Shown here piece after piece: positions 4,926 to 44,060 of a DNA stretch of 64,000 nt (the first letter of the stretch is position 1; every line of letters starts with the position of its first letter). The stretch comes from a virus. The DNA is taken from positions 32,001-96,000 of IMG/VR virus record IMGVR_UViG_3300005573_000055; one strand, given 5' to 3'. Below the pieces are notes generated by a model. It had not been told where the DNA came from and searched no databases. It saw only the letters and a program-made list of their open reading frames with translations. The position numbers were made by a program, and so were the translations under genes.

Positions 4926-5469
4926 CGGACAAGCGCATGTTGATACTGCACTTAGTTATGTTGGTGTTAGGGAAAAAACTGGCAGAAACGATGGGTATTT
5001 TGTTGAAAGGTTTTTATCTTCGGTAGGGCGAAAGAAGGGCGACTCGTGGTGTGCTGCTTTTGTTTCATATTGCTTGACTGTGACTCATACTAAAGAGCCA
5101 GCTATAAGAAGTGGTCTAGCATATGATTTTACAAAAGCCAAATATGTTATTGCAGCAAGTGATGTTCTAAAATATAATCTTAAACTTCCACGTGGTACGC
5201 TTGTTATTTGGCGCAAAGGCACAACTTTGTTTGGCCATATAGGTATAGCAATTACTCAGTGGAAAGGTTCTTCTGGAAAGACTGTAGAAGGAAATACCTC
5301 TCCTGATAGTTCTGGATCACAAAGCAATGGCAATGGTGTGTATATTAAAAATAGAAAGATTAGTCCACTTAGTTACTTTTCAATAAAATACTTTACACTG
5401 GTGGCGCCAAAAGGCAATAAGAATGAAATACCAACTGATTTAAGATTAAGGCCAGGGCTTTTCAAATGA
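4867..5469 (+). CDS. CHAP-domain endolysin with N-terminal signal peptide
   Basis: WCAAFVSYC, GHIGIA and TVEGNT CHAP motifs; hydrophobic leader MRYSFLVFVLLLLLPLYQLNG; ATG at 4867 preferred over TTG at 4861. Confidence 0.85.
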   Translation: MRYSFLVFVLLLLLPLYQLNGQAHVDTALSYVGVREKTGRNDGYFVERFLSSVGRKKGDSWCAAFVSYCLTVTHTKEPAIRSGLAYDFTKAKYVIAASDVLKYNLKLPRGTLVIWRKGTTLFGHIGIAITQWKGSSGKTVEGNTSPDSSGSQSNGNGVYIKNRKISPLSYFSIKYFTLVAPKGNKNEIPTDLRLRPGLFK

Positions 5470-6203
5470 ATAAATACTTTAACATATTGCTTATTATAGC
5501 TTTCATCATAGTGCTCGTGTGTGTGTATTTAAAAAATAAAGCACTCCAAGATGAAATATCCTATTGGCAGAATCAAGCTATTAAGAAAGATAGCCTTATT
5601 CAAATTGATTCTGTCAACTACGAGATAATATCTAAAGAGCGGAACCGTCTTATATCTGAGAACAACAAACTTCTGCTCCTTGCAAAGCAAAACAAGGAAG
5701 AGATTGTATATCTCTTAAACCTTAAAGCCAAGTATGAACTCGCTTTATCTAATATTCATACTAAGCCTGCAGATACAGTTGTTATTTTTGATAAGCCTGA
5801 TAGCCTGGCTCGTATCTTTTCAGTTGAAGTTGATAGTACTCTTAAGATAAGCGGTGCATTCCAGACACATGAGCCATACTATATTAGCTTTAGTGAAATA
5901 TTATTTAGAGCAGCTTTGAATATAATATTGTCTCAAGATAAGTATGGATATTGGCATACGCGTATATCAACAAATTCACCTTATCTTAAACTTGAAGAAG
6001 CAAGAGTGCAGGTTTTAAGCAGGGATGATAATTGGAGATTTTTCTATGGTGGTGGTTTTTCTTTATTTGAAAGGTCGCTTGGCATAGGTGGTTTATTTGG
6101 AGTGCGTAAGAGGGATTATGGTGGGAGTTTGTCATTTACATATCAGCAGCATGATGGCAGACTACTGCCTCTTTGGTTTGTAACACTATATAAATTCATG
6201 TAG
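5466..6203 (+). CDS. spanin-like lysis accessory protein
   Basis: N-terminal TM helix, coiled coil, Gly/aromatic beta-strand C-terminus; ATGA overlap with the endolysin. Confidence 0.5.
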   Translation: MNKYFNILLIIAFIIVLVCVYLKNKALQDEISYWQNQAIKKDSLIQIDSVNYEIISKERNRLISENNKLLLLAKQNKEEIVYLLNLKAKYELALSNIHTKPADTVVIFDKPDSLARIFSVEVDSTLKISGAFQTHEPYYISFSEILFRAALNIILSQDKYGYWHTRISTNSPYLKLEEARVQVLSRDDNWRFFYGGGFSLFERSLGIGGLFGVRKRDYGGSLSFTYQQHDGRLLPLWFVTLYKFM

Positions 6204-6428: not shown

Positions 6429-7257
6429 TGAAATACATATTTACGTAGCCGTCATTTACATCAAAATGATATCCTTCCAGATATGCTTTCTTTTTTAGTT
6501 CTTCCGAGGCTAGTAAAACTTCTCTTAATAGCTTTTTATTACTGAGATATTGAGAGTATCCCATCATATTAATAGCCAATTCGGGCAGTGATATCTTTAT
6601 CATTTGTTTCTTATAGAGTTTCTTATCTAAGATACGATACAGCTTTTTAGCTGGTGCATATTCGATACTTCTATAAAATGGCCAGTCTAAAGGCTTAATA
6701 TTGCCCGAAGATATGGAAATCCACAGTGTATCACTCCAATGTACCTCAAGTATCTCCTTCTTTGAAAAAGCATCCTTCCTTTCAGTTACAAGCAAATCTA
6801 TCAAATGAAATTTCCTGCTTTCGTAGACATTCAAAGCCTTATTGAAAAAGCAGTCAGTCTCTATAAGTATTTTAGAGAGTCTGGTAAGGCATTCGTGTAT
6901 CTTTGCATAATAGTACCCTGATTTAGGCCATGAAAGTCTATCTAGAAGATCTGACATATTTTCTACAAGAACCACCTTAGAGACAAATCGTCTTTCATAG
7001 CTCAGTGAAAGCAAGGCAAGCAGTACATCTTCATCTTCGGGCAATATGCCTGGTAGAATCTTGCCAGAATGTTCTATACTATAAATTGTGACGTGTCCAT
7101 AGGCAAGTCTGCCTGTAAGTTTGTTCCAGTAGCTGATATTATAAGTTCTTTTGCTTGGAATTTCATTCCCCTTCTGACCATAAAACACCAAAGGCAACTC
7201 TATGAGATTAATCTCATCAAAGCTAAAGTGATGATTAATCTTTTGAGTTATCCACAT
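6394..7257 (-). CDS. repA: plasmid-type replication initiator protein (RepA/RPA-like winged helix)
   Basis: NLIELPL, EDEDVLLALL, LLDRLSWPKSGYYY..I..CL.RL and AKKLYRILDKK motifs; ATG at 7257 preceded by AAGGA. Confidence 0.75.
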   Translation of the reverse strand: MWITQKINHHFSFDEINLIELPLVFYGQKGNEIPSKRTYNISYWNKLTGRLAYGHVTIYSIEHSGKILPGILPEDEDVLLALLSLSYERRFVSKVVLVENMSDLLDRLSWPKSGYYYAKIHECLTRLSKILIETDCFFNKALNVYESRKFHLIDLLVTERKDAFSKKEILEVHWSDTLWISISSGNIKPLDWPFYRSIEYAPAKKLYRILDKKLYKKQMIKISLPELAINMMGYSQYLSNKKLLREVLLASEELKKKAYLEGYHFDVNDGYVNMYFIKRLKSQDVSV

Positions 7258-7506
7258 TATAAACATCCTTATTTAAACTATTAACTCTATTTAAACACCT
7301 ATACCGCAGCAAAATCTTTGATTTTACCTTAAAATCAAAGGAATTCTCACTTTGAGGCACAACTTTTTACGAAAAATCAGCCTTTAATGCCGAAACATAG
7401 GTGATTTTTGACTTAACAAATGTAAGATAATTCCGACAGATAGTCAATATCTGTCCGACAAATTAACATTGCAATGTGGATAACTCAAATTAAGTTTGTC
7501 AGACAA
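7242..7506. promoter_or_regulatory. putative replication origin / repA control region
   Basis: 17-bp inverted repeat (7242-7258 / 7473-7489), each arm holding a perfect DnaA box TTATCCACA; palindrome 7316-7340; TGTCnGACA sites at 7452 and 7497. Confidence 0.6.
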
Positions 7507-18017: not shown

Positions 18018-18049
18018 TCTTCTGCCTCGACTTGTGTGTGTGTAAATTT

Positions 18050-20401
18050 CTATCGCACACGAGCTACTATGTAGCCTTCATCTGTGCGGATTTTAAGTAT
18101 GAGCGGATCATAACTGTCTGTCTCCATGACTTTGTGTAATACTTTATCGAAATCTCTTCTTAGTTGATCTATAGAGATTATCATCTCTCTTGGAAATTGT
18201 GTCTTTCTTGTACCTGATGACAATACTTTCAAATCTTCAACTGCATAGCTATCCTTGAACCGTCTGTACTTGATGCCTATAAGCTTATTGTAATAGTGAA
18301 GCTTGAATTTGTCTGCTTTTAGTTTTTCATACACATTGTTAAATACAAATAATGTGATAGGATCTTGCTGATAAATGCTCCTAAAAAGCAGTGTTAGACC
18401 ACGACCATTCTTGAATTTCTTGTGTGATACTATGAATCCTACAGTACAGAGATATCTTTTATCTTTGTCAGATAGAAATTCTTCTATCTCTTTGCGATAT
18501 ACATCCCCCAACGTTGATGTAAACCACATGTTGGTTACTTCGTATTCAAAATCTAGACGTTTCTCAATAGGATAATCAAACTCAAGCGGTACATCGAGTA
18601 TTTCATCGTGCTTTGGTATTCTAAAAAGGTAGTCTTTTTCTCTAAGTAGATGTACAGCTTCGCTTAGATATTCTATAAACGAAAGATCATTTTCTACATG
18701 TAATAGCTGTGCGCGTGTTAAGAACCGCTCTAAACACCCAGCCTTTGCCAATGCTGTTAGGCTATTTGTCTTGATGCCAGTTCTTATAATTAAATCACTT
18801 AAAGACTTAAAAGGTCCACCTTTTTGTCTTTGCTCGAGCAGAACTTGAGCATCTGAACCTAGACCTTTAATGCCGCTTAGTCCAAACCTAATTCTATTGT
18901 GGCCTACAACTGTAAATTCAGTTTCCGATTCGTTAACATCGGGCGGATAAACTTCTATACCAAAATTGCGTGCTTCATATATGAACTCTGTCATCTTTTG
19001 GAGGTCATTGCTTTCAAATATCAAGTTAGCTGCATAGAACTCATCTGTGTAATGTGCTTTAAGATACGCAGTCTTTGCTGTGATAATTGAGTAAGATACA
19101 GCATGACTTAAATTGAAAGCATAAGCACTGAATGATTCCATTTCATTCCACAGCTGATCTATTTCCTCCTCCGTCATGCCAATCTGCATAGCTTTATCTC
19201 TAAAGCGTTCCTTTTCCTTTACCATCTTTGCTTTCTGCTTTTTGGCAACGATCTTACGAAACTCATCTGCCTCCTGGTCACTATAGCCTGCTATAAGCTG
19301 AACTGTTTTTTGGATTTGCTCTTGGTAGATAAAATATCCGTATGTACTTTGTAAAACGCTTTTCAAGACTGGGAATCGTTCAGCTTGCGGAATTATATCA
19401 GGCTTTTGATTATTGCGGATTTTGAGTATACTGAACAGAAAATCCATCGGGCCTGGTCTAAAGCCTGCTGAGATGAGTACTATGTCAGAAAACTGCTTTG
19501 GCTTAAATTGCTTGATAAACTTTGTTATGCTATCACCTTCAAACTGAAATATTCCAAGCAGATTGCCTGATGATATTAGTTCATATGACTCAGAGTCGTT
19601 GATTGGTATATCTTCTAGTGAAAGCTTGATACCATGGTTTTTCTCTATAAGTTTTAATGTTTTCTCTATAACAGACAATGTCTTAAGGGCCAGCATATCG
19701 ACTTTGAGAAATCCCAAAGCTTCCACTTCATTCATATCACATTCGGTAATGATTTCACCTTCGCTTTCCCAGATGGGAATTGTCTCATAAAGCGGCTCGT
19801 TTGATATAATTATACCTGCAGCATGTGTAGAGCGCGATGATATCAAGCCCTCCATTTTGCGAGCAAGATCGATAACTCTCTTAGCATTACTGTCTTTCTC
19901 ATAGATGGTCTTGAAATCTTCATTCAAAGAAAGAAGACTGTCTATGGTCCAATTTGTTCCCTGCACAGGATCAGGAACCATATTTGCGAGCTTGTCAATA
20001 AAGTCAAATTCATATCCTAAAGCCTTGCCAACATATCTGATTGCTGACTTAGCATACATCCTATTGAATGTCCCTATCCTTGCAACATGAGAAGGACCAT
20101 ATTTATTCTTGATGTAAGAAACAACCTCATCACGTTTATCTTTGTCGAAATCTATGTCTATATCTGGAGATGTGCCACCTATATATTTTGGCAGACCAGT
20201 TGGCTTCTCATCCGTAATTCCTATAAGATAAGCTATAGTAGAATTTTGGTCGTTGGTAACCTTGATGCCTTTCTTTTTTAATGCAAGAAAGTAACCTTCC
20301 ATGTTGTATATTTCAACAGCACCTATTTCTTTCCTAAAAGCTGCATAGTCTATCTCACTGAGTCTGCTGCTGCTTAGACAAAGTTCTCTTAGTGTTCCCA
20401 T
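18050..20401 (-). CDS. dnaE: DNA polymerase III alpha subunit, C-terminal (catalytic) part
   Basis: PDIDIDF, HAAGIII, KVDMLAL, GIFQFE, RPGP, YQEQ, YAFNLSHA and PPDVNES motifs. Confidence 0.95.
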   Translation of the reverse strand: MGTLRELCLSSSRLSEIDYAAFRKEIGAVEIYNMEGYFLALKKKGIKVTNDQNSTIAYLIGITDEKPTGLPKYIGGTSPDIDIDFDKDKRDEVVSYIKNKYGPSHVARIGTFNRMYAKSAIRYVGKALGYEFDFIDKLANMVPDPVQGTNWTIDSLLSLNEDFKTIYEKDSNAKRVIDLARKMEGLISSRSTHAAGIIISNEPLYETIPIWESEGEIITECDMNEVEALGFLKVDMLALKTLSVIEKTLKLIEKNHGIKLSLEDIPINDSESYELISSGNLLGIFQFEGDSITKFIKQFKPKQFSDIVLISAGFRPGPMDFLFSILKIRNNQKPDIIPQAERFPVLKSVLQSTYGYFIYQEQIQKTVQLIAGYSDQEADEFRKIVAKKQKAKMVKEKERFRDKAMQIGMTEEEIDQLWNEMESFSAYAFNLSHAVSYSIITAKTAYLKAHYTDEFYAANLIFESNDLQKMTEFIYEARNFGIEVYPPDVNESETEFTVVGHNRIRFGLSGIKGLGSDAQVLLEQRQKGGPFKSLSDLIIRTGIKTNSLTALAKAGCLERFLTRAQLLHVENDLSFIEYLSEAVHLLREKDYLFRIPKHDEILDVPLEFDYPIEKRLDFEYEVTNMWFTSTLGDVYRKEIEEFLSDKDKRYLCTVGFIVSHKKFKNGRGLTLLFRSIYQQDPITLFVFNNVYEKLKADKFKLHYYNKLIGIKYRRFKDSYAVEDLKVLSSGTRKTQFPREMIISIDQLRRDFDKVLHKVMETDSYDPLILKIRTDEGYIVARVR

Positions 20402-20582
20402 AGTAATGTTCCGTAGTTTGACTGCGTCTGTTGGCTAATTCAGATATGGGCAAGTTTGAAAGTGATATATGTGATACTGACATGAGTGCAAATATCCATG
20501 TAAAGATGGAGTTGTCTTTATAGCCCGTAAATATATATTTTAACTCTGGGTTGTTGCCTGTAAGCCTGATTGCATTTGACAT
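20355..20582 (-). CDS. small ORF between the two dnaE halves
   Basis: 75 aa; overlaps both dnaE genes; GAGG upstream; may be spurious. Confidence 0.3.
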   Translation of the reverse strand: MSNAIRLTGNNPELKYIFTGYKDNSIFTWIFALMSVSHISLSNLPISELANRRSQTTEHYYGNTKRTLSKQQQTQ

Positions 20583-21880
20583 TGTTCAGCCTCATATATT
20601 TCATATGGATATTCTTTGAAGCTAATAACTGGTTTGGCAGCTCTGCCTTTATTTAGAAATCTTGCAAATGACAAATCGTAATCCAGTGGGTTGACATCTG
20701 TAATACCTAAGGCATATGAGATAAGACATCCAGCTGCGCTTCCACGTCCTGGCCCTACGAGGATTCCATTGCTTTTGGCCCACAAGACATAATCTTGCAC
20801 TATCAAAAAGTATCCAGCATATCCAGTCTGCTCAATTGTCTTAAGCTCCATCTCGATGCGATCATATATCTTCTTGTCTATGCTCTTGCCAAACCTTCTT
20901 CGCAAACCTTCAAAGACCAGCTTACGTAAAACAACATCCTCCTTGTCGGAAGGATAAAGCTGCGGAAGCCTATTTTTGCCCATCTCTATATTGACATTAC
21001 AACGTTCGGCTATTTCAAGAGTGTTATCTATGGCTTCCTTAAAACCCGAAAATCTTTCGAGCATATCTTTATAGCTGTATAAATGATATCCATTGCCTGG
21101 ATATTTAATGTTTTGCATTTTTGGATCACTAAGTGTAATATTATCTCTTATAGCAAGCATGATATCGTGGGCCAGCACATCTTCTTTTTCGATGAAATGA
21201 GTATCTGATGTAGCTACCAGCTTAATACCATACTTCTTTGCCAAAGAAGGAAGACTATCAAGAAGTATTGAGTCTTCTATCGTATTGTGATTTTGAATTT
21301 CAATGTAAAAACGATCACCAAAGATTTTCTTATGCCACGAGATAATCTCTTCTGGATCTTCCAAGACATTTTCCTGATGATTGCATTCTATATTGCTAAA
21401 ATCCCCATCCTGGTTGAAACTTTTCTCAATGCCATGCTTCTTTAAAATAGCCGAAGCCAAAGCACCACCTGCACAGCCAGAAAGACATATTAAGCCTTCG
21501 TTATACATTCTGAGAAGTTCACGATCTATTCTGGGCTTGTAATAAAAATGGTCTTTGTTGTAGCTTAAACTTACAAGCTTAATCAAATTACGCCAGCCTT
21601 GGTTATTCATAGCAAGCAGTGTAATATGTGTATATTTGTCTACACCTGGCTGTTTGTCAAACCTCGAACGAGTTGCCATATAGGCCTCTACGCCAGCAAT
21701 AGGTTTAATACCATACTCCTTGGCATATTTAAATAATGATATAACACCGCCAAGTGTTCCATGATCTGTAAGAGCTATTGCTGGAAGACCATAGGCTTTT
21801 GTTTTATCCATAAGCTCATCTATCTTGCAAATACCGTCTCTTATAGAAAATATCGAGTGCAGATGAAGCGGGGCATACAT
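20540..21880 (-). CDS. dnaE: DNA polymerase III alpha subunit, N-terminal PHP part
   Basis: HLHSIFS, ALTDHG, GVEAY, KPRID, SDTH, GPGRGSAAG and FARFLN motifs. Confidence 0.95.
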   Translation of the reverse strand: MYAPLHLHSIFSIRDGICKIDELMDKTKAYGLPAIALTDHGTLGGVISLFKYAKEYGIKPIAGVEAYMATRSRFDKQPGVDKYTHITLLAMNNQGWRNLIKLVSLSYNKDHFYYKPRIDRELLRMYNEGLICLSGCAGGALASAILKKHGIEKSFNQDGDFSNIECNHQENVLEDPEEIISWHKKIFGDRFYIEIQNHNTIEDSILLDSLPSLAKKYGIKLVATSDTHFIEKEDVLAHDIMLAIRDNITLSDPKMQNIKYPGNGYHLYSYKDMLERFSGFKEAIDNTLEIAERCNVNIEMGKNRLPQLYPSDKEDVVLRKLVFEGLRRRFGKSIDKKIYDRIEMELKTIEQTGYAGYFLIVQDYVLWAKSNGILVGPGRGSAAGCLISYALGITDVNPLDYDLSFARFLNKGRAAKPVISFKEYPYEIYEAEQCQMQSGLQATTQS

Positions 21881-22987: not shown

Positions 22988-23025
22988 AAATTAAAAGGAT
23001 AGCCACCATCAAAGATGACTATCCT
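22988..23025 (-). terminator. intrinsic terminator after recA
   Basis: AGGATAG...CTATCCT stem (22996-23025) followed by a T-rich tract on the - strand. Confidence 0.6.
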
Positions 23026-23066
23026 ACCTCAGAGTGTGTGTGTGTGTGATTTGCACTGGTCTTTTG

Positions 23067-24140
23067 CTATTCTGCCTGTGATAGTGCTTGTGTGGTTAGT
23101 TCTTCAGTGCAAAATACTTTTTCTACTTCAGATTCTATAGCTTGTAAGAGTTCTGGCTTCTCTTTCAGAGTCAATCGGCAGTTCTCCAAGCCTTGACCTA
23201 TTTTCTCATCGCCAAAAGAAAGCCAACTACCGGATTTCTTAACTATATCTGCCTGTATAGCCAAGTTGAGAATATCCATCTCTCTTGAAAAACCTTCTCC
23301 CGGGTAGAGAAATAGATTAGCAAAGAGATAAGGCTTAGCAGTTTTATTCTTTGTTGCTGTAACACGTACTTCTTCGCCGATATACTGATCACCACGTTGG
23401 ATCTTACCGCCTTTTGTCTTAGAAAGCTCTAAAGCTACATGAGCATAAAACTTCATAGCATTGCCGCCTGTAAAAGTCTTAGAACCAACCATTGAAGCCA
23501 GATTAGCTCTCAGCTGGTTGATGTAGATAATGGATATTCTGTTTTTTCTTGCAAGAGCAGTTACCTTACTGAAATGCCCCGACAATAGCCTTGCAACGCT
23601 TGCTATGCCGGGACTTTCTTCAGCATATTTATCCTGCTGATCTACTGTCGATAAAGCGGCTACCGAGTCTAAAACTATCAGGTTAACAGAGTTGTTTTCT
23701 ACCAGCGCCTGAATGATATTTAACGCCTCTTCGGCGGATTCTGGTACACTGACAGTGAAACTCTTATCTTTACAATCTACCTTAATACCATAAGCTTTTT
23801 CTACATATGCGCTATCAAAAGAACCTTCTCGATCAATCCAGTGGACAGCACCTCCTGCTTTAAGCACGTGAGATGCTATTACATAAGCTAAAGCTGATTT
23901 TCCAAGAGATTCATATCCATATAGATTTACTATACAGCCAAGTGGAAAACCTGCTTTTTCGCCGTAGTGATATCCAGATAGCACAAAGTTCAAGGAAGGA
24001 AGACTTAGCTTTAGGCGTTCTGTCTTTAAAAGACCATCTTGAGGATCGATAAAGATATTCTTTCTTTTGTAATAAGCAGCAAGAGAAGCCTCAGCTAAAT
24101 CTATCTTCTTTGGATCAAAAGTTAATTTCTTCTCTTCCAT
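23067..24140 (-). CDS. recA: RecA recombinase
   Basis: GYESLGKS Walker A, IVLDSVAAL, INQLR, TGGNAMKFYA, KNKTAKPY and KKSGSWLS motifs; ATG at 24140 with AGGAG RBS. Confidence 0.95.
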   Translation of the reverse strand: MEEKKLTFDPKKIDLAEASLAAYYKRKNIFIDPQDGLLKTERLKLSLPSLNFVLSGYHYGEKAGFPLGCIVNLYGYESLGKSALAYVIASHVLKAGGAVHWIDREGSFDSAYVEKAYGIKVDCKDKSFTVSVPESAEEALNIIQALVENNSVNLIVLDSVAALSTVDQQDKYAEESPGIASVARLLSGHFSKVTALARKNRISIIYINQLRANLASMVGSKTFTGGNAMKFYAHVALELSKTKGGKIQRGDQYIGEEVRVTATKNKTAKPYLFANLFLYPGEGFSREMDILNLAIQADIVKKSGSWLSFGDEKIGQGLENCRLTLKEKPELLQAIESEVEKVFCTEELTTQALSQAE

Positions 24141-24231
24141 GTATATACTCCTAAAATGTGCGCTCGTGTGTGTGTTAAAAAATCCCCCTTGTTTTTTTAT
24201 ATATAAATAACTATCAATATGTTTTAACAAT

Positions 24232-24273
24232 TAAAAAAAAATAAAATGTGGTGTAAGATTGCTCCTACACCAC
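24232..24273 (-). terminator. intrinsic terminator closing the structured RNA
   Basis: GTGGTGTA/TACACCAC stem (24248-24273) followed by ATTTTATTTTTTTTT on the - strand. Confidence 0.75.
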
Positions 24274-25084
24274 TCTGAGGATGACCACCACACACACCTC
24301 ACAAGGCAGACTTTTCAAGAAATAGCTAGTAGTTATGCAGCCTTTGGTGTTATGATGGTTCTGTACTCATACTTTGACAAACTCTAGTGAGACCTACACT
24401 AGAGGTGCTCGGACCTCATGTCGCCCCTTGAAGGCCCATCGTTACACCAGGTCCATCGAGAGCTAAACAATGTTTAGCTCTCAGGTCTCAAAGACTAGAC
24501 TTTCGTCTAGCTATAAACTTTAATAAACTGATTTTTTTTCTATAAATAGTAATATTTCGTAATAAGCTAACTCTAGATTGATCCTATGAAATGGATTTTA
24601 TCCAGAGCTAGCTTTACGAAATATTACTTGTCTTTAAAACTTTGGCATATAGGTGGTATTAACAATTGTCTTTATACAATACAATGTACCATTACAATGT
24701 ATTAAACACTTGTGAACAATAAGTGCCAGAAGAGAAATTCTGTTTAAGAACAAACCACCTGTTTCAAAACATAGCCTTCCGACTATGTTTAACTCACAGA
24801 TTGATTAAAACTTTAGGCTCGGAGAGCCTTAAGCCTTCAAGCATGTTGTGCTACAAAGTAATACAACTCGAAGATAAAGCTTGTCTTTCGACAAGTAAAG
24901 CTAAAACTAAAACTTTGGTTCGGTCAACCGAACCAAAGCCCATTCGCCGATCCGGCTGAGTTGGGCTTCTCACGCGTAACAATAACAACGTTTTGTTACG
25001 CGATATACATAGACCTTATCTTTCGATAAGCCAAAACTTCATATTAGCAAAGAGAAGAACTTTGCCTTAAACCTTATCCACACA
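24235..25084 (-). ncRNA. candidate large (~0.85 kb) highly structured non-coding RNA
   Basis: more than a dozen stem-loops, three C(GAAA)G tetraloops and G-U pairs on the - strand; bounded by a promoter-like motif (25085-25102) and a terminator; no credible ORF. Confidence 0.6.
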
Positions 25085-25102
25085 AAAACCTTTTCTTCTA
25101 CT
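25085..25102 (-). promoter_or_regulatory. conserved promoter-like motif, copy 3 (one mismatch)
   Basis: - strand AGTAGAAGAAAAGGTTTT matches the copies at 38006 and 49711 at 17/18 positions. Confidence 0.5.
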
Positions 25103-25159
25103 TATCGAAGTCGTCACTAAAGTCAGCATATCAATATAGTCCTTCGATAAGCACCAAAG

Positions 25160-25396
25160 ATATGATTTAGCTAAAAGCATATCTAGATAGATAATCTATA
25201 TAGCTAATAGCTATCATCAAAGATTATCTAATCTAGATATGCTTAGCTATATTGATATCCATATCATATAGATATGTATAGCAAGTATATCATCTAGTAT
25301 AGATATGCTATATCCCATGTGGATCTATCTAGCTATATGATATCTATATAGATAGTCTATCTATGATATGCTTATCTATATAGATATATATATCTA
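25160..25396. repeat. AT-rich low-complexity palindromic tract (TAGAT/ATCTA/GATAT words)
   Basis: long imperfect inverted repeat 25176-25243 and several nested palindromes such as TATCTATATAGATA. Confidence 0.65.
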
Positions 25397-25405
25397 GGAA
25401 ATCTC

Positions 25406-28234
25406 TCATCCACAGCCTGTGGTTTCTCCGCATGTTGGACAGGTCATGCAAGAGCCACTTTGGATAAGCGGACCTCCACAGTTACGGCAGAATATACCTG
25501 TCTGCTTAGGAAGACTTGTCTGCTTTGATTGTTCGAGCTTTTGTTCTTCCGGCGTCAAAGGTATAGTTTGATCTTTGCCGTCAAGAAATGTTAGCTTTAA
25601 GTATTTAGCTATGTAGTCGATAATGCTGTATGCTATTCTAATATCAGGATTATCTGTAAATCCAGCTGGTTCAAATCTCGTATACATGAACTTGTCTATC
25701 AAATATTCCAAAGAAACACCATACTGTAAAGCTATTGAAAACATAGTAGCCCAACTGTCTGCAAATCCTGATATGGTTGAACCTTCTTTATTAACCTTAA
25801 TGAATACTTCACCTGGTTGACCATTTTCATAAAGACCAATTGTCATAAATCCATCTACACCATTAATAGTGAATTTATGTGTAATTGAAGGTCTTGTTGC
25901 TGGAAGTTTCTTTCTTACTGGCTTTGGTCTTCCATTTTGAAGAACAGCGTTGTCTTTATTTTCCAAAGAGGTAGTTACAGGCTGACTGCCTTTTGAACCA
26001 TCTCTGTATATTGCAATTGCTTTTAGCTGTTCTTTCCAGGCAAGCGTATATATATTCTTTACATCTTCAACGGTTGCTGAATTTGGCATATTAACCGTTT
26101 TAGATATTGCCCCAGAAATAAATGGCTGAACAGCTGCCATCATTTTTACGTGACTTACAGCATCAATAGTATTTGTTTTCGACAAAGCAGTAGCAAATAC
26201 CGATCGATGTTCTGGATTTATGGCTTCTATAAAAGCATCTTCTCCCCGGCTGTTAAGTATTTGATCTAAAGCTTCTATTTGTTCTGCACTATAACCTAAG
26301 ACTTGTAGAGCTTTTCTTACTGATGGAATTACAAGCTTTAATAGTCCCCCGCCAACAATTGTCTTGTAGGAAATGAGTGCTATAGGAGGTTCTATACCTG
26401 TTGTCTCGCAATCCATCATAAAACTAATTGTTCCAGTTGGAGCTATTACAGTTGTTTGTGCATTTCTGACAACAAAGTTGTTCTGCTCTAAAATCCTCCA
26501 TTGTTCTTCTACTTTTAATGCTAAATTCCAAAGCTCTTTGTTTTCGCTTTCTGCAAGACTGTAACGCTCTACAAGTTTATCAAAATGTTCTTTGTGTTTA
26601 AATAAAATGTTCTTTACATACTGAGCATTCTTTTCAAATTCCGGGAAAGATCCAAGTTTTGAAGCAAGGATAGAAGATTGAGCATATGCACCAATTGTCA
26701 TCAGCGCCGAAATAAGCGATGCGTATAGCCTTGCCTGTTCAGAACCATATGCCAGACCTTTTCTTAGAAGCAATGCTCCAAGATCTGTAAAACCAAGTCC
26801 AATGGTTCTGAATTTCTTTGTAGCTTCAGCAATTTCTGTTGTTGGATAGTATGCTCTGTCGATCCATATATCTAAAGCTGTTGAGACTAGGTGCACAGCT
26901 TTTGTAAAAGCTTCAGCATCAAAGTTATTATTTGCATCGAGAAATTCAGTAAGTTTAAGCGATCCTAAATTACAGCTTGTATTGTCTATAAACATATACT
27001 CGCTGCAAGGATTAGAACCGTTAATTCTATCACTTGCTGGACATGTATGCCATTTGTTTATTGTGGTGTCAAATTGCATTCCTGGATCGCCGCATGTCCA
27101 GGCGGATTTGCATATAATATCAAACAAGTAACGAGCTTTATACCCATTGATAATCTTAAAATATTTTCCTTGTGTTAATAGGTAGTTTTCATCATTGTAT
27201 TTTACAATTGTGCCTTGTGGTATAGTTTTTACAGACTGGGTTTCAGCTTGATTAATATCTCGCGGATATCGCTCAATTGTAACCCAAAGGTCATCAGCTT
27301 CCACTGCTCTCATAAATGCGTCTGTAACTCTTACAGACTGATTACTATTTTGGAAGAATACACTTCCGTAAGCCCCTTTTGGATCATCAAAACTTGATGA
27401 ATATCCATTGGCTATAAGCGTTAAGGCTTTCTTCTCTTCTTCAGATTTTTGAAGTATAAAGTCTTCTATATCGCCGTGGTCTACATTCAAAATACGCATC
27501 TGTGCAGCACGTCTTGTCTTACCGCCAGATTTAGTTACTCCAGCAGCTACATCTGCAACTTTCATAAATGAGCATGGACCACTTGAATATCCGCCGCCTG
27601 ATATTCTTTCTTTACTTGAACGTAAAGCACTATAGTTTATACCTGAACCTGAACCTGCTCTATAGATTTCCATTTCAGAGACAATGGATTTTTCTATAGA
27701 CTCCATTGTATCTTCTATGCCGATAATGAAGCAAGCAGATACTTGCGGCTTTGAGTATGGATTACCTATGTTAAACCATACTGGAGAATTAAAGCTGAAT
27801 GCTTGTTTATATATCAATCTTTTAAGTTCTTCAATGTATATTTGCAAATCTTCAGACAGTGTTTTATTCATGAAATCTTTGTATGATTTCATGTTTTTGC
27901 CATGAACTGTCTGAATAGTTTTAACCGATTTGGCTATTTGTTTATCTTCATCAGTGAAGTATCCATCTAAAGCTCCCCAGAGTGCATTGGTGTATATCAC
28001 TCTATTTACTAAAGACTTAAAAGACTGTTCTTCTTTTTGGTTATTAATTAACTTGCCGTAAAAGTATTTACTGGCAACTATGTTAACAGCTTGCTGACTA
28101 AAGTGTGCTGGAAATTCAACTCCTTCCTGGCGGAAATTAGAGCCCTCGATTTCCGCATTAAAGGTTTTCCAGAGAACACTATCGTCAGCAAGTGGAAAGT
28201 CTCGTGTAAAATATCTATCAAAGCGAATTCCCAT
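25406..28234 (-). CDS. nrdJ: class II (B12-dependent) ribonucleotide reductase
   Basis: FNSPVWFN, SACFI, GGKTRRAAQM, NPCSEY, IAPTGTIS and YRDGSK motifs; TSCPD domain and C-terminal Zn ribbon. Confidence 0.95.
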   Translation of the reverse strand: MGIRFDRYFTRDFPLADDSVLWKTFNAEIEGSNFRQEGVEFPAHFSQQAVNIVASKYFYGKLINNQKEEQSFKSLVNRVIYTNALWGALDGYFTDEDKQIAKSVKTIQTVHGKNMKSYKDFMNKTLSEDLQIYIEELKRLIYKQAFSFNSPVWFNIGNPYSKPQVSACFIIGIEDTMESIEKSIVSEMEIYRAGSGSGINYSALRSSKERISGGGYSSGPCSFMKVADVAAGVTKSGGKTRRAAQMRILNVDHGDIEDFILQKSEEEKKALTLIANGYSSSFDDPKGAYGSVFFQNSNQSVRVTDAFMRAVEADDLWVTIERYPRDINQAETQSVKTIPQGTIVKYNDENYLLTQGKYFKIINGYKARYLFDIICKSAWTCGDPGMQFDTTINKWHTCPASDRINGSNPCSEYMFIDNTSCNLGSLKLTEFLDANNNFDAEAFTKAVHLVSTALDIWIDRAYYPTTEIAEATKKFRTIGLGFTDLGALLLRKGLAYGSEQARLYASLISALMTIGAYAQSSILASKLGSFPEFEKNAQYVKNILFKHKEHFDKLVERYSLAESENKELWNLALKVEEQWRILEQNNFVVRNAQTTVIAPTGTISFMMDCETTGIEPPIALISYKTIVGGGLLKLVIPSVRKALQVLGYSAEQIEALDQILNSRGEDAFIEAINPEHRSVFATALSKTNTIDAVSHVKMMAAVQPFISGAISKTVNMPNSATVEDVKNIYTLAWKEQLKAIAIYRDGSKGSQPVTTSLENKDNAVLQNGRPKPVRKKLPATRPSITHKFTINGVDGFMTIGLYENGQPGEVFIKVNKEGSTISGFADSWATMFSIALQYGVSLEYLIDKFMYTRFEPAGFTDNPDIRIAYSIIDYIAKYLKLTFLDGKDQTIPLTPEEQKLEQSKQTSLPKQTGIFCRNCGGPLIQSGSCMTCPTCGETTGCG

Positions 28235-31242: not shown

Positions 31243-32085
31243 TTATACTCCGATTATTCCTTGCAATTTATTTAAGTAGTTATAAGCATGGTTATTGACC
31301 TTAAGAACATTCTTATAACCGTTGATGACATGCTTAGACGGCGGAGTACCTCTTTTAATACCTGAAATGATGTGCTTAAAGACTTTTTCGTAGTACTCTT
31401 TGGCAACGTTGAGCTTCTCATTGACAACATATCCTAAGATACTTTGTCTTGTATAATAAGGCATAATATGACATTTGCGCCTGTTTACTTTAAAGTTGTG
31501 ACTTTCAATTATGCTGATTATTTCATTCTTCTCATTTTTGGTAATTACATCACCTGAGAATATCAGATTGTCCCCATAGCTCGTATATGTAAGGTTTTTT
31601 GAATTTGCATAAGCTTCTAACTCAACATCAAGGTTATACCTTACAATATTAGCAAACAATGGAGATGTCAGAAATCCTTGAGGCATAATTCTTTTATTAT
31701 CCCAAGGAAATGTAAGGAAATGCGCTATGGCGCCAATGTCTATGCCAGCTATATCAGTTATTCCATTATTAAGAAATGTCTCTACAAGTATTATGTCATC
31801 AATTTGGTCGAAGTAGTTCTTTAGGTCTAAATCCATGACTACTTTTTTACCTACGTGCAGCGCGGCACATTCAGTTCTTGAACGGCCGCGCCTCCATCCG
31901 TAGGCACTATCATGTATTTTAAGCTTATAGTTCTCAAGCAAAGACAGCAGCAGCTTTTGAGCTGTTCTGTAAGTGCTATTTGGATTTATAATCCTTCGGG
32001 TCTTATGCTTGGTTTTGACGTGAAGAATATCAACAAATCTGCGTTGATCTTCGTTGATATACATTATCAGGTCTTTAAGTATCAT
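31243..32085 (-). CDS. retron-type reverse transcriptase with YGDN active-site motif
   Basis: RRIINP, HDSAYG, CAALH (region X NAxxH), DLKNYFDQI, PQGFLTSP.FAN, YTSYGDNLIFS, F.VN..K and RQSILGYVVN (region Y VTG-like). Confidence 0.9.
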   Translation of the reverse strand: MILKDLIMYINEDQRRFVDILHVKTKHKTRRIINPNSTYRTAQKLLLSLLENYKLKIHDSAYGWRRGRSRTECAALHVGKKVVMDLDLKNYFDQIDDIILVETFLNNGITDIAGIDIGAIAHFLTFPWDNKRIMPQGFLTSPLFANIVRYNLDVELEAYANSKNLTYTSYGDNLIFSGDVITKNEKNEIISIIESHNFKVNRRKCHIMPYYTRQSILGYVVNEKLNVAKEYYEKVFKHIISGIKRGTPPSKHVINGYKNVLKVNNHAYNYLNKLQGIIGV

Positions 32086-43351: not shown

Positions 43352-43665
43352 GAAAGATGTACGAAAGACAGTCTCAGCAGATTACTGAGAAGATTGTCAT
43401 CACTGAAAAGATTAGCACTCCAGAAATTCCACAGAGCCAACAGATTGAGCCAAATGATATAAAGCTATTAATCTCTCAGATTCCTATTCAAAGATTTGAC
43501 TATAAGACCACAGTTTTCTTAACTGAAGAAGACTATCTTATGGTCAAACGCATTTTATACAAGCTTCAGCAAAGGAACAGGAAGATGACTTTTCGGCAGT
43601 TAATACACATAATGATACAAAAAGCTGGGTCAGAGATTGAAAAATTTTTAGACGGTCAGTCGTAA
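43330..43665 (+). CDS. putative centromere-binding partner of ParA (ParG-like ribbon-helix-helix)
   Basis: overlaps parA; flexible N-terminus, C-terminal KTTVFLTEEDY strand-helix-helix; abuts the repeat array. Confidence 0.65.
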   Translation: MSKFNELRKMYERQSQQITEKIVITEKISTPEIPQSQQIEPNDIKLLISQIPIQRFDYKTTVFLTEEDYLMVKRILYKLQQRNRKMTFRQLIHIMIQKAGSEIEKFLDGQS

Positions 43666-44060
43666 AGTCATATAGTCATAAAAGCATATCCTCATAAAGT
43701 AATACTATCATAAATGCGTATAACCATAAAACCGTATTATCACAAAGTCATACTGCCGTAAAGCTATAATATCATATAGTCATGCTTTCATAAAGTCATA
43801 AAATCATACTGCCGTAAAGTCGTACCTTAACAAAGTCATAAAGTCGTAAAGTCGTAAAGTCATATTATCACATAGTCATTCTTTCACAAAAGCATAAAGT
43901 CATAAAATCATATAGTCGCACTTTCATAGAACCATAAAGTCATATTATAATAAAGTCATACTATCATACAGCCATAAAATCATAATGTAGTAAAGTCATA
44001 CTATTATATAGTAATAAAGCCATACATTCTTAGAATCATAAAGTCATAAAATCATAAAGT
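43661..44060 (+). repeat. 50 x 8-bp tandem array, consensus CATAAAGT (putative parS/parC centromere)
   Basis: 400 bp stays in 8-bp register with no indel; directly downstream of parA and its partner. Confidence 0.85.

Follow-up and report, generated by a model that had tools for sequence, protein, structure and literature searches.

The nrdJ and recA genes of an uncultured phage (155.5 kb, CheckV completeness 88%) are separated by an unusually long interval. All coordinates given here are positions in the window, i.e. the 64-kb stretch of DNA that was analysed, which corresponds to bases 32001–96000 of the 155,523-nt IMG/VR phage record. From approximately 6.4 kb to 62.8 kb all genes are encoded on the minus strand. 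Upstream of the interval lies an operon with ThiF, a reverse transcriptase (RT, 31243–32085) and a Whirly-like protein, and 3' of recA there are two unknown genes followed by a split DnaE (PHP domain, then polymerase core). The genes to which we refer throughout are:

23067–24143, minus strand: recA (Pfam RecA and RecA_C; start ATG at 24141–24143)
25406–28234, minus strand: nrdJ, class II B12-dependent ribonucleotide reductase (Pfam)
31243–32085: reverse transcriptase (Pfam RVT_1)

The split DnaE (window 18050–21880) consists of a PHP-domain gene and a polymerase-core gene with at least one small ORF between them, an arrangement conserved in all the related phages that we fetched.

The nrdJ–recA interval covers positions 24144–25405, and within it the stretch 24231–25405 (~1.17 kb, henceforth the gap) is devoid of plausible ORFs, the longest such stretch in the whole 155,523 nt of the record. 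The ORFs inside the gap are short (78 aa at most) and have implausible sequences, and none of the three that were tested, the 78-aa one included, matched a PHROG. Neither did alternative genetic codes uncover a hidden gene, as no long ORF appeared with code 4 (TGA=Trp) or with TAG read as Gln. As codes 11 and 4 and TAG=Gln all fail to give a credible ORF, the gap can be regarded as non-coding, in agreement with the initial annotation, which was made from the sequence only.

Architecture and strand of the gap

When an 850-nt segment of the gap was folded and compared with dinucleotide shuffles, it gave z scores of −12.98 (minus strand) and −16.59 (plus strand), while the coding tiles used as a control had a mean z of −0.8 (sd 1.2, minimum −3.2). 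In a genome-wide fold scan the region provided the top scores of the AT-rich part of the genome. We read it in the minus orientation, which is that of nrdJ, recA and all the flanking genes, and in this direction it comprises the following features:

25161–25405, no strand assigned: AT-rich block immediately past the nrdJ stop, with direct and inverted repeats (z −4.9 / −6.1)
25033–25160, minus strand: block A, 5' segment with a 10-bp CTTATCGAAG/CTTCGATAAG stem (z −1.2, background level)
25074–25082, plus strand: perfect DnaA-box sequence TTATCCACA, inside block A
24908–25032, minus strand: block B (z −4.7)
24767–24906, minus strand: block CD, three-way junction (z −4.9)
24631–24770, minus strand: block E, AU-rich multibranch closed by AGGTGGT/ACCACCT (z −2.3, marginal)
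24548–24628, minus strand: block F, 81-nt hairpin (z −12.1 for 24546–24630)
24511–24547, minus strand: AU-rich linker of 37 nt, 14% GC, unstructured
24374–24512, minus strand: block G, the GC-richest domain (z −4.3)
24274–24373, minus strand: block H, GU-rich (z −0.6, predicted pairing at background)
24235–24273, minus strand: intrinsic terminator with an 11-bp stem and a GCAA loop, then AUUUUAUUUUUUUUU (z −7.0)
24144–24234, minus strand: recA upstream region, which includes AT-rich sequence, the leader ACACACACACGAGCGCACAT (CA-rich) and an AGGAG ribosome-binding site

The block next to nrdJ (245 nt, 26% GC) is made up of palindromes and repeats, and between 25176 and 25309 it carries the only three perfect copies of TAGATATGCT in the window, one on the minus and two on the plus strand, in nested palindromes. 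It is a candidate operator or protein-binding array, and might also be a weak nrdJ terminator or a promoter zone. Block B begins with a GAAA-capped hairpin (25030–25015) followed by hairpins at 25002–24973, 24969–24935 and 24934–24917, the last of which extends to an 11-bp stem and is terminator-like (24941–24910, CUUUGGUUCGG-UUGA-CCGAACCAAAG, then UUUUAGUUUU). Block CD contains a GAAA hairpin (24895–24880), a second hairpin (24873–24835), a third (24834–24810) followed by UUUUAA, and a GGAA-capped one (24788–24769). The two internal terminator-like stems, 24941–24910 and 24834–24810, are weaker than the terminator at 24273–24248 and have a common CNAAAG/UUUUA tail; of the three copies of TAAAACTTT in the region, a motif rare elsewhere in the genome, two belong to them. 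A search for the hairpin motifs of the gap in the rest of its own genome found no repeats.

Block F pairs through 15 perfect base pairs plus 14 more that include two G-U pairs (24608/24570 and 24603/24575), formed on the minus strand only, as had been noticed in the initial annotation. In the linker, TATTTATAG(A)8 is similar to TATTTATATAT(A)7 upstream of recA, and an internal promoter at 24511–24547 is conceivable. Block G can adopt either two local hairpins (the GAAA hairpin 24510–24495 and 24404–24382) or a 19-bp interrupted closing helix that encloses a three-way junction, because the alternative pairings share CTAG palindromes. All 12 stems originally proposed (24382–24404, 24411–24454, 24458–24482, 24495–24510, 24548–24628, 24651–24760, 24767–24790, 24815–24829, 24880–24895, 24913–24938, 24973–25002 and 25015–25030) were recovered in span-limited folds. 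The complementarity of TGAGACCT (24388–24395) to AGGTCTCA (24483–24490), taken as the sign of a pseudoknot or switch, is indeed there but carries little weight as such a sign, given that by our own arithmetic some 1–2 chance complements of this kind (8 nt, no more than ~100 nt apart) are to be expected per 900 nt.

As for the strand, the three C(GAAA)G loops described in the initial annotation are present on the minus strand (at 25024, 24889 and 24504), and two further GNRA loops closed through G-U pairs, GGAA at 24780 and GCAA at 24262 in the terminator, bring the total to five. Among perfect hairpins with 4-nt loops, GNRA makes up three of six in the region (minus strand) versus 2.5–4.3% genome-wide, and every C(GAAA)G hairpin with a stem of at least 6 bp on the minus strand of the genome is one of the three found here. 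The plus strand of the region has a single GNRA loop, on a 5-bp stem. The stems of the GAAA hairpins differ from one another by paired changes (CTTGTC/GACAAG, CTTATC/GATAAG, CTAGAC/GTCTAG). GNRA loops are thus biased to the minus strand. Other measures were less discriminating. Beside or inside Watson-Crick stems, 15 positions form G-U pairs on the minus strand and five are A-C there (G-U on the plus strand), an excess that is not significant after correction for the G+U-rich composition (P=0.12). Loop composition, used as a strand test, gave no preference for the minus strand, and the gain over shuffles was the same on both strands (plus strand z −16.6). The C(GAAA)G motif is also unusually stable as a DNA mini-hairpin.

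At the 3' end of the unit, the terminator at 24273–24248 (11 pairs, GCAA loop, 9-U tail, ATTTTATTTT...) has the GC-containing stem-loop and immediate U tract of an intrinsic (Rho-independent) terminator, and on the minus strand it is a canonical one; the initial annotation had likewise named a terminator as bracketing the unit. The promoter-like motif described as its counterpart did not hold up: ATATTGATA has 15 occurrences genome-wide, most of them within coding sequence, and both it and TATTTATA were discarded as promoter motifs for lack of specificity. Visual comparison of 32 gene-upstream regions yielded no promoter consensus, and no promoter for the gap was identified. With its GNRA bias and U-tailed terminator, the region would most likely yield a structured RNA from the minus strand.

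CA-rich leaders (ACACACACG or GACACACAAG) recur at gene starts in this phage and its clade, located just 5' of the start on the coding strand. They were observed at:

24160–24180, 23020–23050, 18020–18045 and 5500–5526, minus strand: CA-rich leaders in the window
L025:3060–3130, L028:5050–5065 and 5440–5455, L061:13000–13040, L018:5295–5310: CA-rich leaders in related loci

The recA leader CACACGAGC(G)CACAT is also present upstream of recA in L061. Throughout the clade these sequences may serve as a promoter, leader or translation element.

The minus-strand fold signal is concentrated in blocks B, CD, F and G and in the terminator, whereas A and H, two of the eight blocks, are at background and block E (z −2.3) is not clearly above the coding tiles. 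Base pairs spanning up to 100 nt contribute −291.5 of the −317.3 kcal/mol (92%) of the global energy, which makes the fold a modular one. Taken with the linker, the internal terminators, the CTAG-driven alternatives and the chance-level 8-nt complement, this energy share led us to consider the whole architecture modular. The region is real, hairpin-dense, non-coding, modular and orphan, and its structure goes beyond chance.

Outside the window, at 68,000–78,000 on the window scale (L062), a block of ~10 kb reaches a GC of 0.42–0.57 compared with ~0.36. This block is coding (e.g. a 920-aa ORF) and its gaps contain GACACACACACGCC motifs in several copies. No part of the genome gives stronger fold-energy outliers, and Rfam had no match to the block.

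Known RNA families and related phages

Comparison with Rfam 15 (cmscan, gathering score) produced no matches in the whole 64-kb window. When positions 24000–25500 were scanned with E values up to 10, nothing better than E=6.6 was found within 24235–25084, and the only low E values belonged to miRNA-like noise in the AT-rich palindromes at 25160–25405. ARAGORN detected neither tRNA nor tmRNA in the window. The statement that the region is unlike tRNA, tmRNA, RNase P or introns is borne out by these searches and extends to known ribozymes and riboswitches; its novelty also survived the Infernal/Rfam comparison that had been suggested as a check. In the sense of matching no described family, the region is new by sequence.

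The initial annotation had gone further and compared the region to GOLLD and ROOL, large ornate RNAs that constitute Rfam families and have been studied by cryo-EM (PMC12286853). The reading would be one globally folded RNA of ~850–900 nt, of a new class on that scale, trans-acting and possibly assembled into a multimeric particle. Several features are shared: like GOLLD and ROOL, the gap is phage-borne, lacks coding capacity, measures several hundred to ~800 nt and has many stems and GNRA loops (five here), and in addition it ends in a terminator, matches no known family and has a counterpart of sorts in the same interval of L023, where ~780 nt of a structured gap are bounded by two terminators. 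To our knowledge, the function of GOLLD and ROOL is still not known. However, the gap matches neither covariance model even at E up to 10, it has no tRNA genes in the 64-kb window, in contrast to the usual phage tRNA neighbourhood of those RNAs, and there is no family of homologs from which a consensus could be defined. Its fold consists mainly of local modules, with strong long-range closure absent (long-range pairs add just ~8% of the energy), and blocks A and H at background and E marginal leave little for a global structure. The terminator-like stems and the 37-nt unstructured AU linker break it up, the canonical 11-nt tetraloop receptor was not seen by eye in the sequence, and nothing is conserved with the nearest relatives. 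A chain of local modules with internal terminator-like stems, folding alike on both strands, speaks against a single GOLLD/ROOL-scale RNA, and we regard this reading as unlikely.

The gap has no DNA similarity to the phage and plasmid collections searched, the rest of its own genome or the records of its relatives, and an 18-mer taken from it was not found in IMG/VR. Only one other contig carries the same RecA (L030), and it is 100% identical over 5.2 kb. Beyond it, the best matches reach an identity of 50% for RecA and 54% for NrdJ, and the closest syntenic phages have RecA/NrdJ identities of 42–52%. We defined a syntenic clade by the order ThiF-RT-Zn-ribbon-Whirly ... NrdJ ... RecA-x-x-PHP/DnaE, to which this phage, G001 (L036/L058/L064), L059/L060 (overlapping L025) and L061 belong; L015, L018, L021, L023 and L028 have the recA-DnaE part in common. 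In this otherwise syntenic block the nrdJ–recA interval is the variable part, and its contents in relatives are as follows:

G001 (L036): 463-nt non-coding segment directly after nrdJ, z −12.5
L023: 860-nt gap in the same interval, z −13.0; ~780 nt between two terminators, as read from the sequence
L018: 584-nt gap upstream of recA (5254–5837), z −9.8
L059, L061 and L021: small ORFs and shorter structured gaps in the interval, sense z −3.3 to −9.0
L025: 670-nt gap, unstructured

The first three are comparable in structure to our gap and unrelated to it in sequence. Neither blastn nor nhmmer with the gap against all the fetched loci found a homolog, and the gaps of the relatives resembled neither ours nor each other (blastn and nhmmer throughout; k-mers and covariance models against ours). 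In an all-versus-all comparison of 19 relatives' gaps, the sole match between relatives with E<0.001 joined the recA-upstream gaps of L025 and L061, where we read a CA-rich leader. The 11–17-mers common to the gap and L018, L021 and L028 were coding sequence or single chance matches. Single-sequence covariance models of blocks G (R1) and CD (R2) were compared with 17 loci and the complete G001 record, both filtered and unfiltered, and reached a best E of 0.07–0.4, i.e. noise, with poor alignments on both strands. Rfam matched none of the relatives' gaps and only tRNAs elsewhere in their loci. Within lineages, copies of the relatives' gaps are identical or differ by one gap, with no substitutions. 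The motif AAAGTTTTA was also considered as a clade motif and rejected, being absent from the relatives' gaps. A large screen for structured RNAs in IMG/VR required at least three homologous sequences and mentions neither nrdJ nor recA (PMC10690425).

Some of these loci have peculiarities of their own. In L018 (5254–5837) there are three copies of a CCCGAAAGGG hairpin with a GAAA loop, followed by TATAAATACCACGACACACGTAAAATATACGTG, and a promoter-like motif; structured segments of ~200 nt separate the copies. They may be tandem small RNA units that share the promoter and leader of the downstream gene. A tRNA-Met (L059:6617–6693) sits within a structured gap upstream of nrdJ, and the NrdJ of L061 (7001–10735, 1244 aa) has an HNH_3 insertion that suggests an intein or homing element.

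The variability of the interval could also mean that the gap has no dedicated function and is a hypervariable slot in which filler, terminators and decayed remnants of palindromic or mobile elements have accumulated. This would fit the small ORFs of L059, L061 and L021, the unrelated structured gaps in L036 and L023, the mobile-element traffic that the HNH insertion in the L061 nrdJ reveals nearby, and the lack of any conserved gap sequence. Against this, hairpin density far exceeds that of the other AT-rich parts of the genome, GNRA enrichment is strand-specific and the hairpin motifs have no further copies in the genome. We consider the absence of a dedicated function improbable.

Possible replication origin and proposed link to the reverse transcriptase

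A further reading places the function of the gap at the DNA level, as a replication origin or a primosome-loading zone in which an initiator would attach to the AT-rich repeats and single-stranded DNA would fold into the hairpins. Transcription is compatible with it, and in one variant an origin transcript would act as primer. Structured origin transcripts are well known, among them ColE1 RNA II (a primer) and the early transcript in the origin of lactococcal phage c2. The gap is like them in being hairpin-rich, non-coding, several hundred nt long and situated in a replication region with AT-rich repeats beside it, although it has no sequence relationship to either. In favour of this reading, the gap is part of the replication module and no other in the genome is as long, its AT-rich block (25161–25405) repeats TAGATATGCT in both orientations among many palindromes, there is a perfect DnaA box at 25074, and both strands fold equally well. 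AT-rich palindromic gaps shortly upstream of recA are found in L028, L061 and L063 too.

However, the reading is weakened because the window has a better iteron array at 43662–44055, far more classical in type, with ~19 same-strand copies of ATAAAGTCAT spaced in multiples of 8 nt. Moreover, two perfect inverted DnaA boxes flank another gap (7267–7506), GC skew, which follows transcription and is of little information on origins, has no inflection at the nrdJ–recA gap, and the GNRA loops, the wobble bias and the U-tailed terminator favour one transcribed strand. We hold a DNA-level or origin role of the nrdJ–recA gap to be rather unlikely.

The array at 43662–44055 fills a 386-nt gap of 28% GC at a strand switch, almost wholly with ATAAAGTCAT copies (one mismatch at most). 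We regard it as an iteron or centromere-like array of the classical type, and it ranks first among the candidates for an origin or partition site in the window. The inverted DnaA boxes TTATCCACA start at 7248 and 7475 (7248–7483) around the gap 7267–7506 (240 nt, 31% GC), and apart from these, perfect DnaA boxes occur at 25074 and 41959.

The initial annotation had also made the gap RNA its best candidate for a trans-encoded template of the orphan RT at 31243–32085; we considered a role as partner of the RT as well. This RT has no non-coding gap adjacent to it, which is why a template was sought further away, and the closest relative, G001, possesses an RT too, as well as a structured gap immediately following nrdJ. 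As with retron msr-msd and DRT ncRNAs, there would be a structured ncRNA (here predicted) and a standalone RT in the same genome. Nevertheless, those ncRNAs adjoin their RT, whereas the gap is ~6 kb away with more than six genes between, and relatives do not preserve the association. L059 and L061 conserve the order ThiF-RT-Zn-ribbon-Whirly, yet what follows nrdJ in them is limited to small ORFs and gaps that are short and unrelated, with no comparable large RNA. L018 is the reverse case, with a structured gap in a 3.2-Mb assembly in which the RT query found no match. Co-occurrence with the RT, put forward as a check of the proposal, was thus seen in G001 alone, and the structured gaps of relatives share no sequence or model similarity. 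The "promoter motif" ATATTGATA common to the RT operon and the gap is the non-specific one discussed above. A retron ncRNA lies beside its RT and is co-inherited with it, and the gap does neither; a template role appears very improbable.

The gap as a putative inter-operon RNA region

The reading that we prefer, with a probability of roughly one half (0.5), is that the gap gives rise to one or several modular ncRNAs, a structured UTR or an inter-operon hub. The 1.17-kb gap would be transcribed on the minus strand, either by read-through from nrdJ or from a promoter inside the repeat block 25161–25405. The resulting RNA of ~0.9 kb would fold during transcription as a succession of local modules independent of each other (hairpins rich in GC, a pair of three-way junctions and the 81-nt near-perfect hairpin, with five GNRA caps) and would have its 3' end at the canonical terminator 24273–24248. 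The two internal terminator-like stems may release shorter RNAs or throttle read-through. The products could be one or several stable lineage-specific ncRNAs, or a structured 3' UTR of nrdJ, and their role is probably that of an RNA-level insulator, or of a hub for processing or regulation, placed between the operon of Ubl, RT and nrdJ and the replication operon of recA and DnaE.

Clusters of terminators and RNA-processing sites between operons are familiar in phages, e.g. the RNase III sites of T7 and the terminator zones of lambda. The gap resembles them in its tandem stable hairpins between co-directional operons, some with U tracts, and in having one long near-perfect duplex of the type cut by RNase III. 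Unlike them, it extends over ~900 nt with more than 12 stems, far beyond what such sites need, and it has GNRA-capped hairpins and three-way junctions, which simple terminators typically lack.

A bolder version would make the gap RNA a member of a new class of large (~0.9 kb) GNRA-rich phage ncRNAs, unrelated to GOLLD/ROOL and trans-acting during infection, one of a fast-evolving set that occupies the nrdJ–recA slot in the RT-bearing clade (this phage, G001/L036 and L023). We offer it as a tentative idea that is distinctly unlikely to hold in full.

The case illustrates a limit of sequence-only discovery, in that a region can be strikingly structured and yet orphan. Each new unrelated large phage RNA would widen the set in which a function can be sought, and the recurrence of structured, sequence-unrelated gaps in or near this slot hints at a fast-evolving RNA niche beside the replication genes of these phages.
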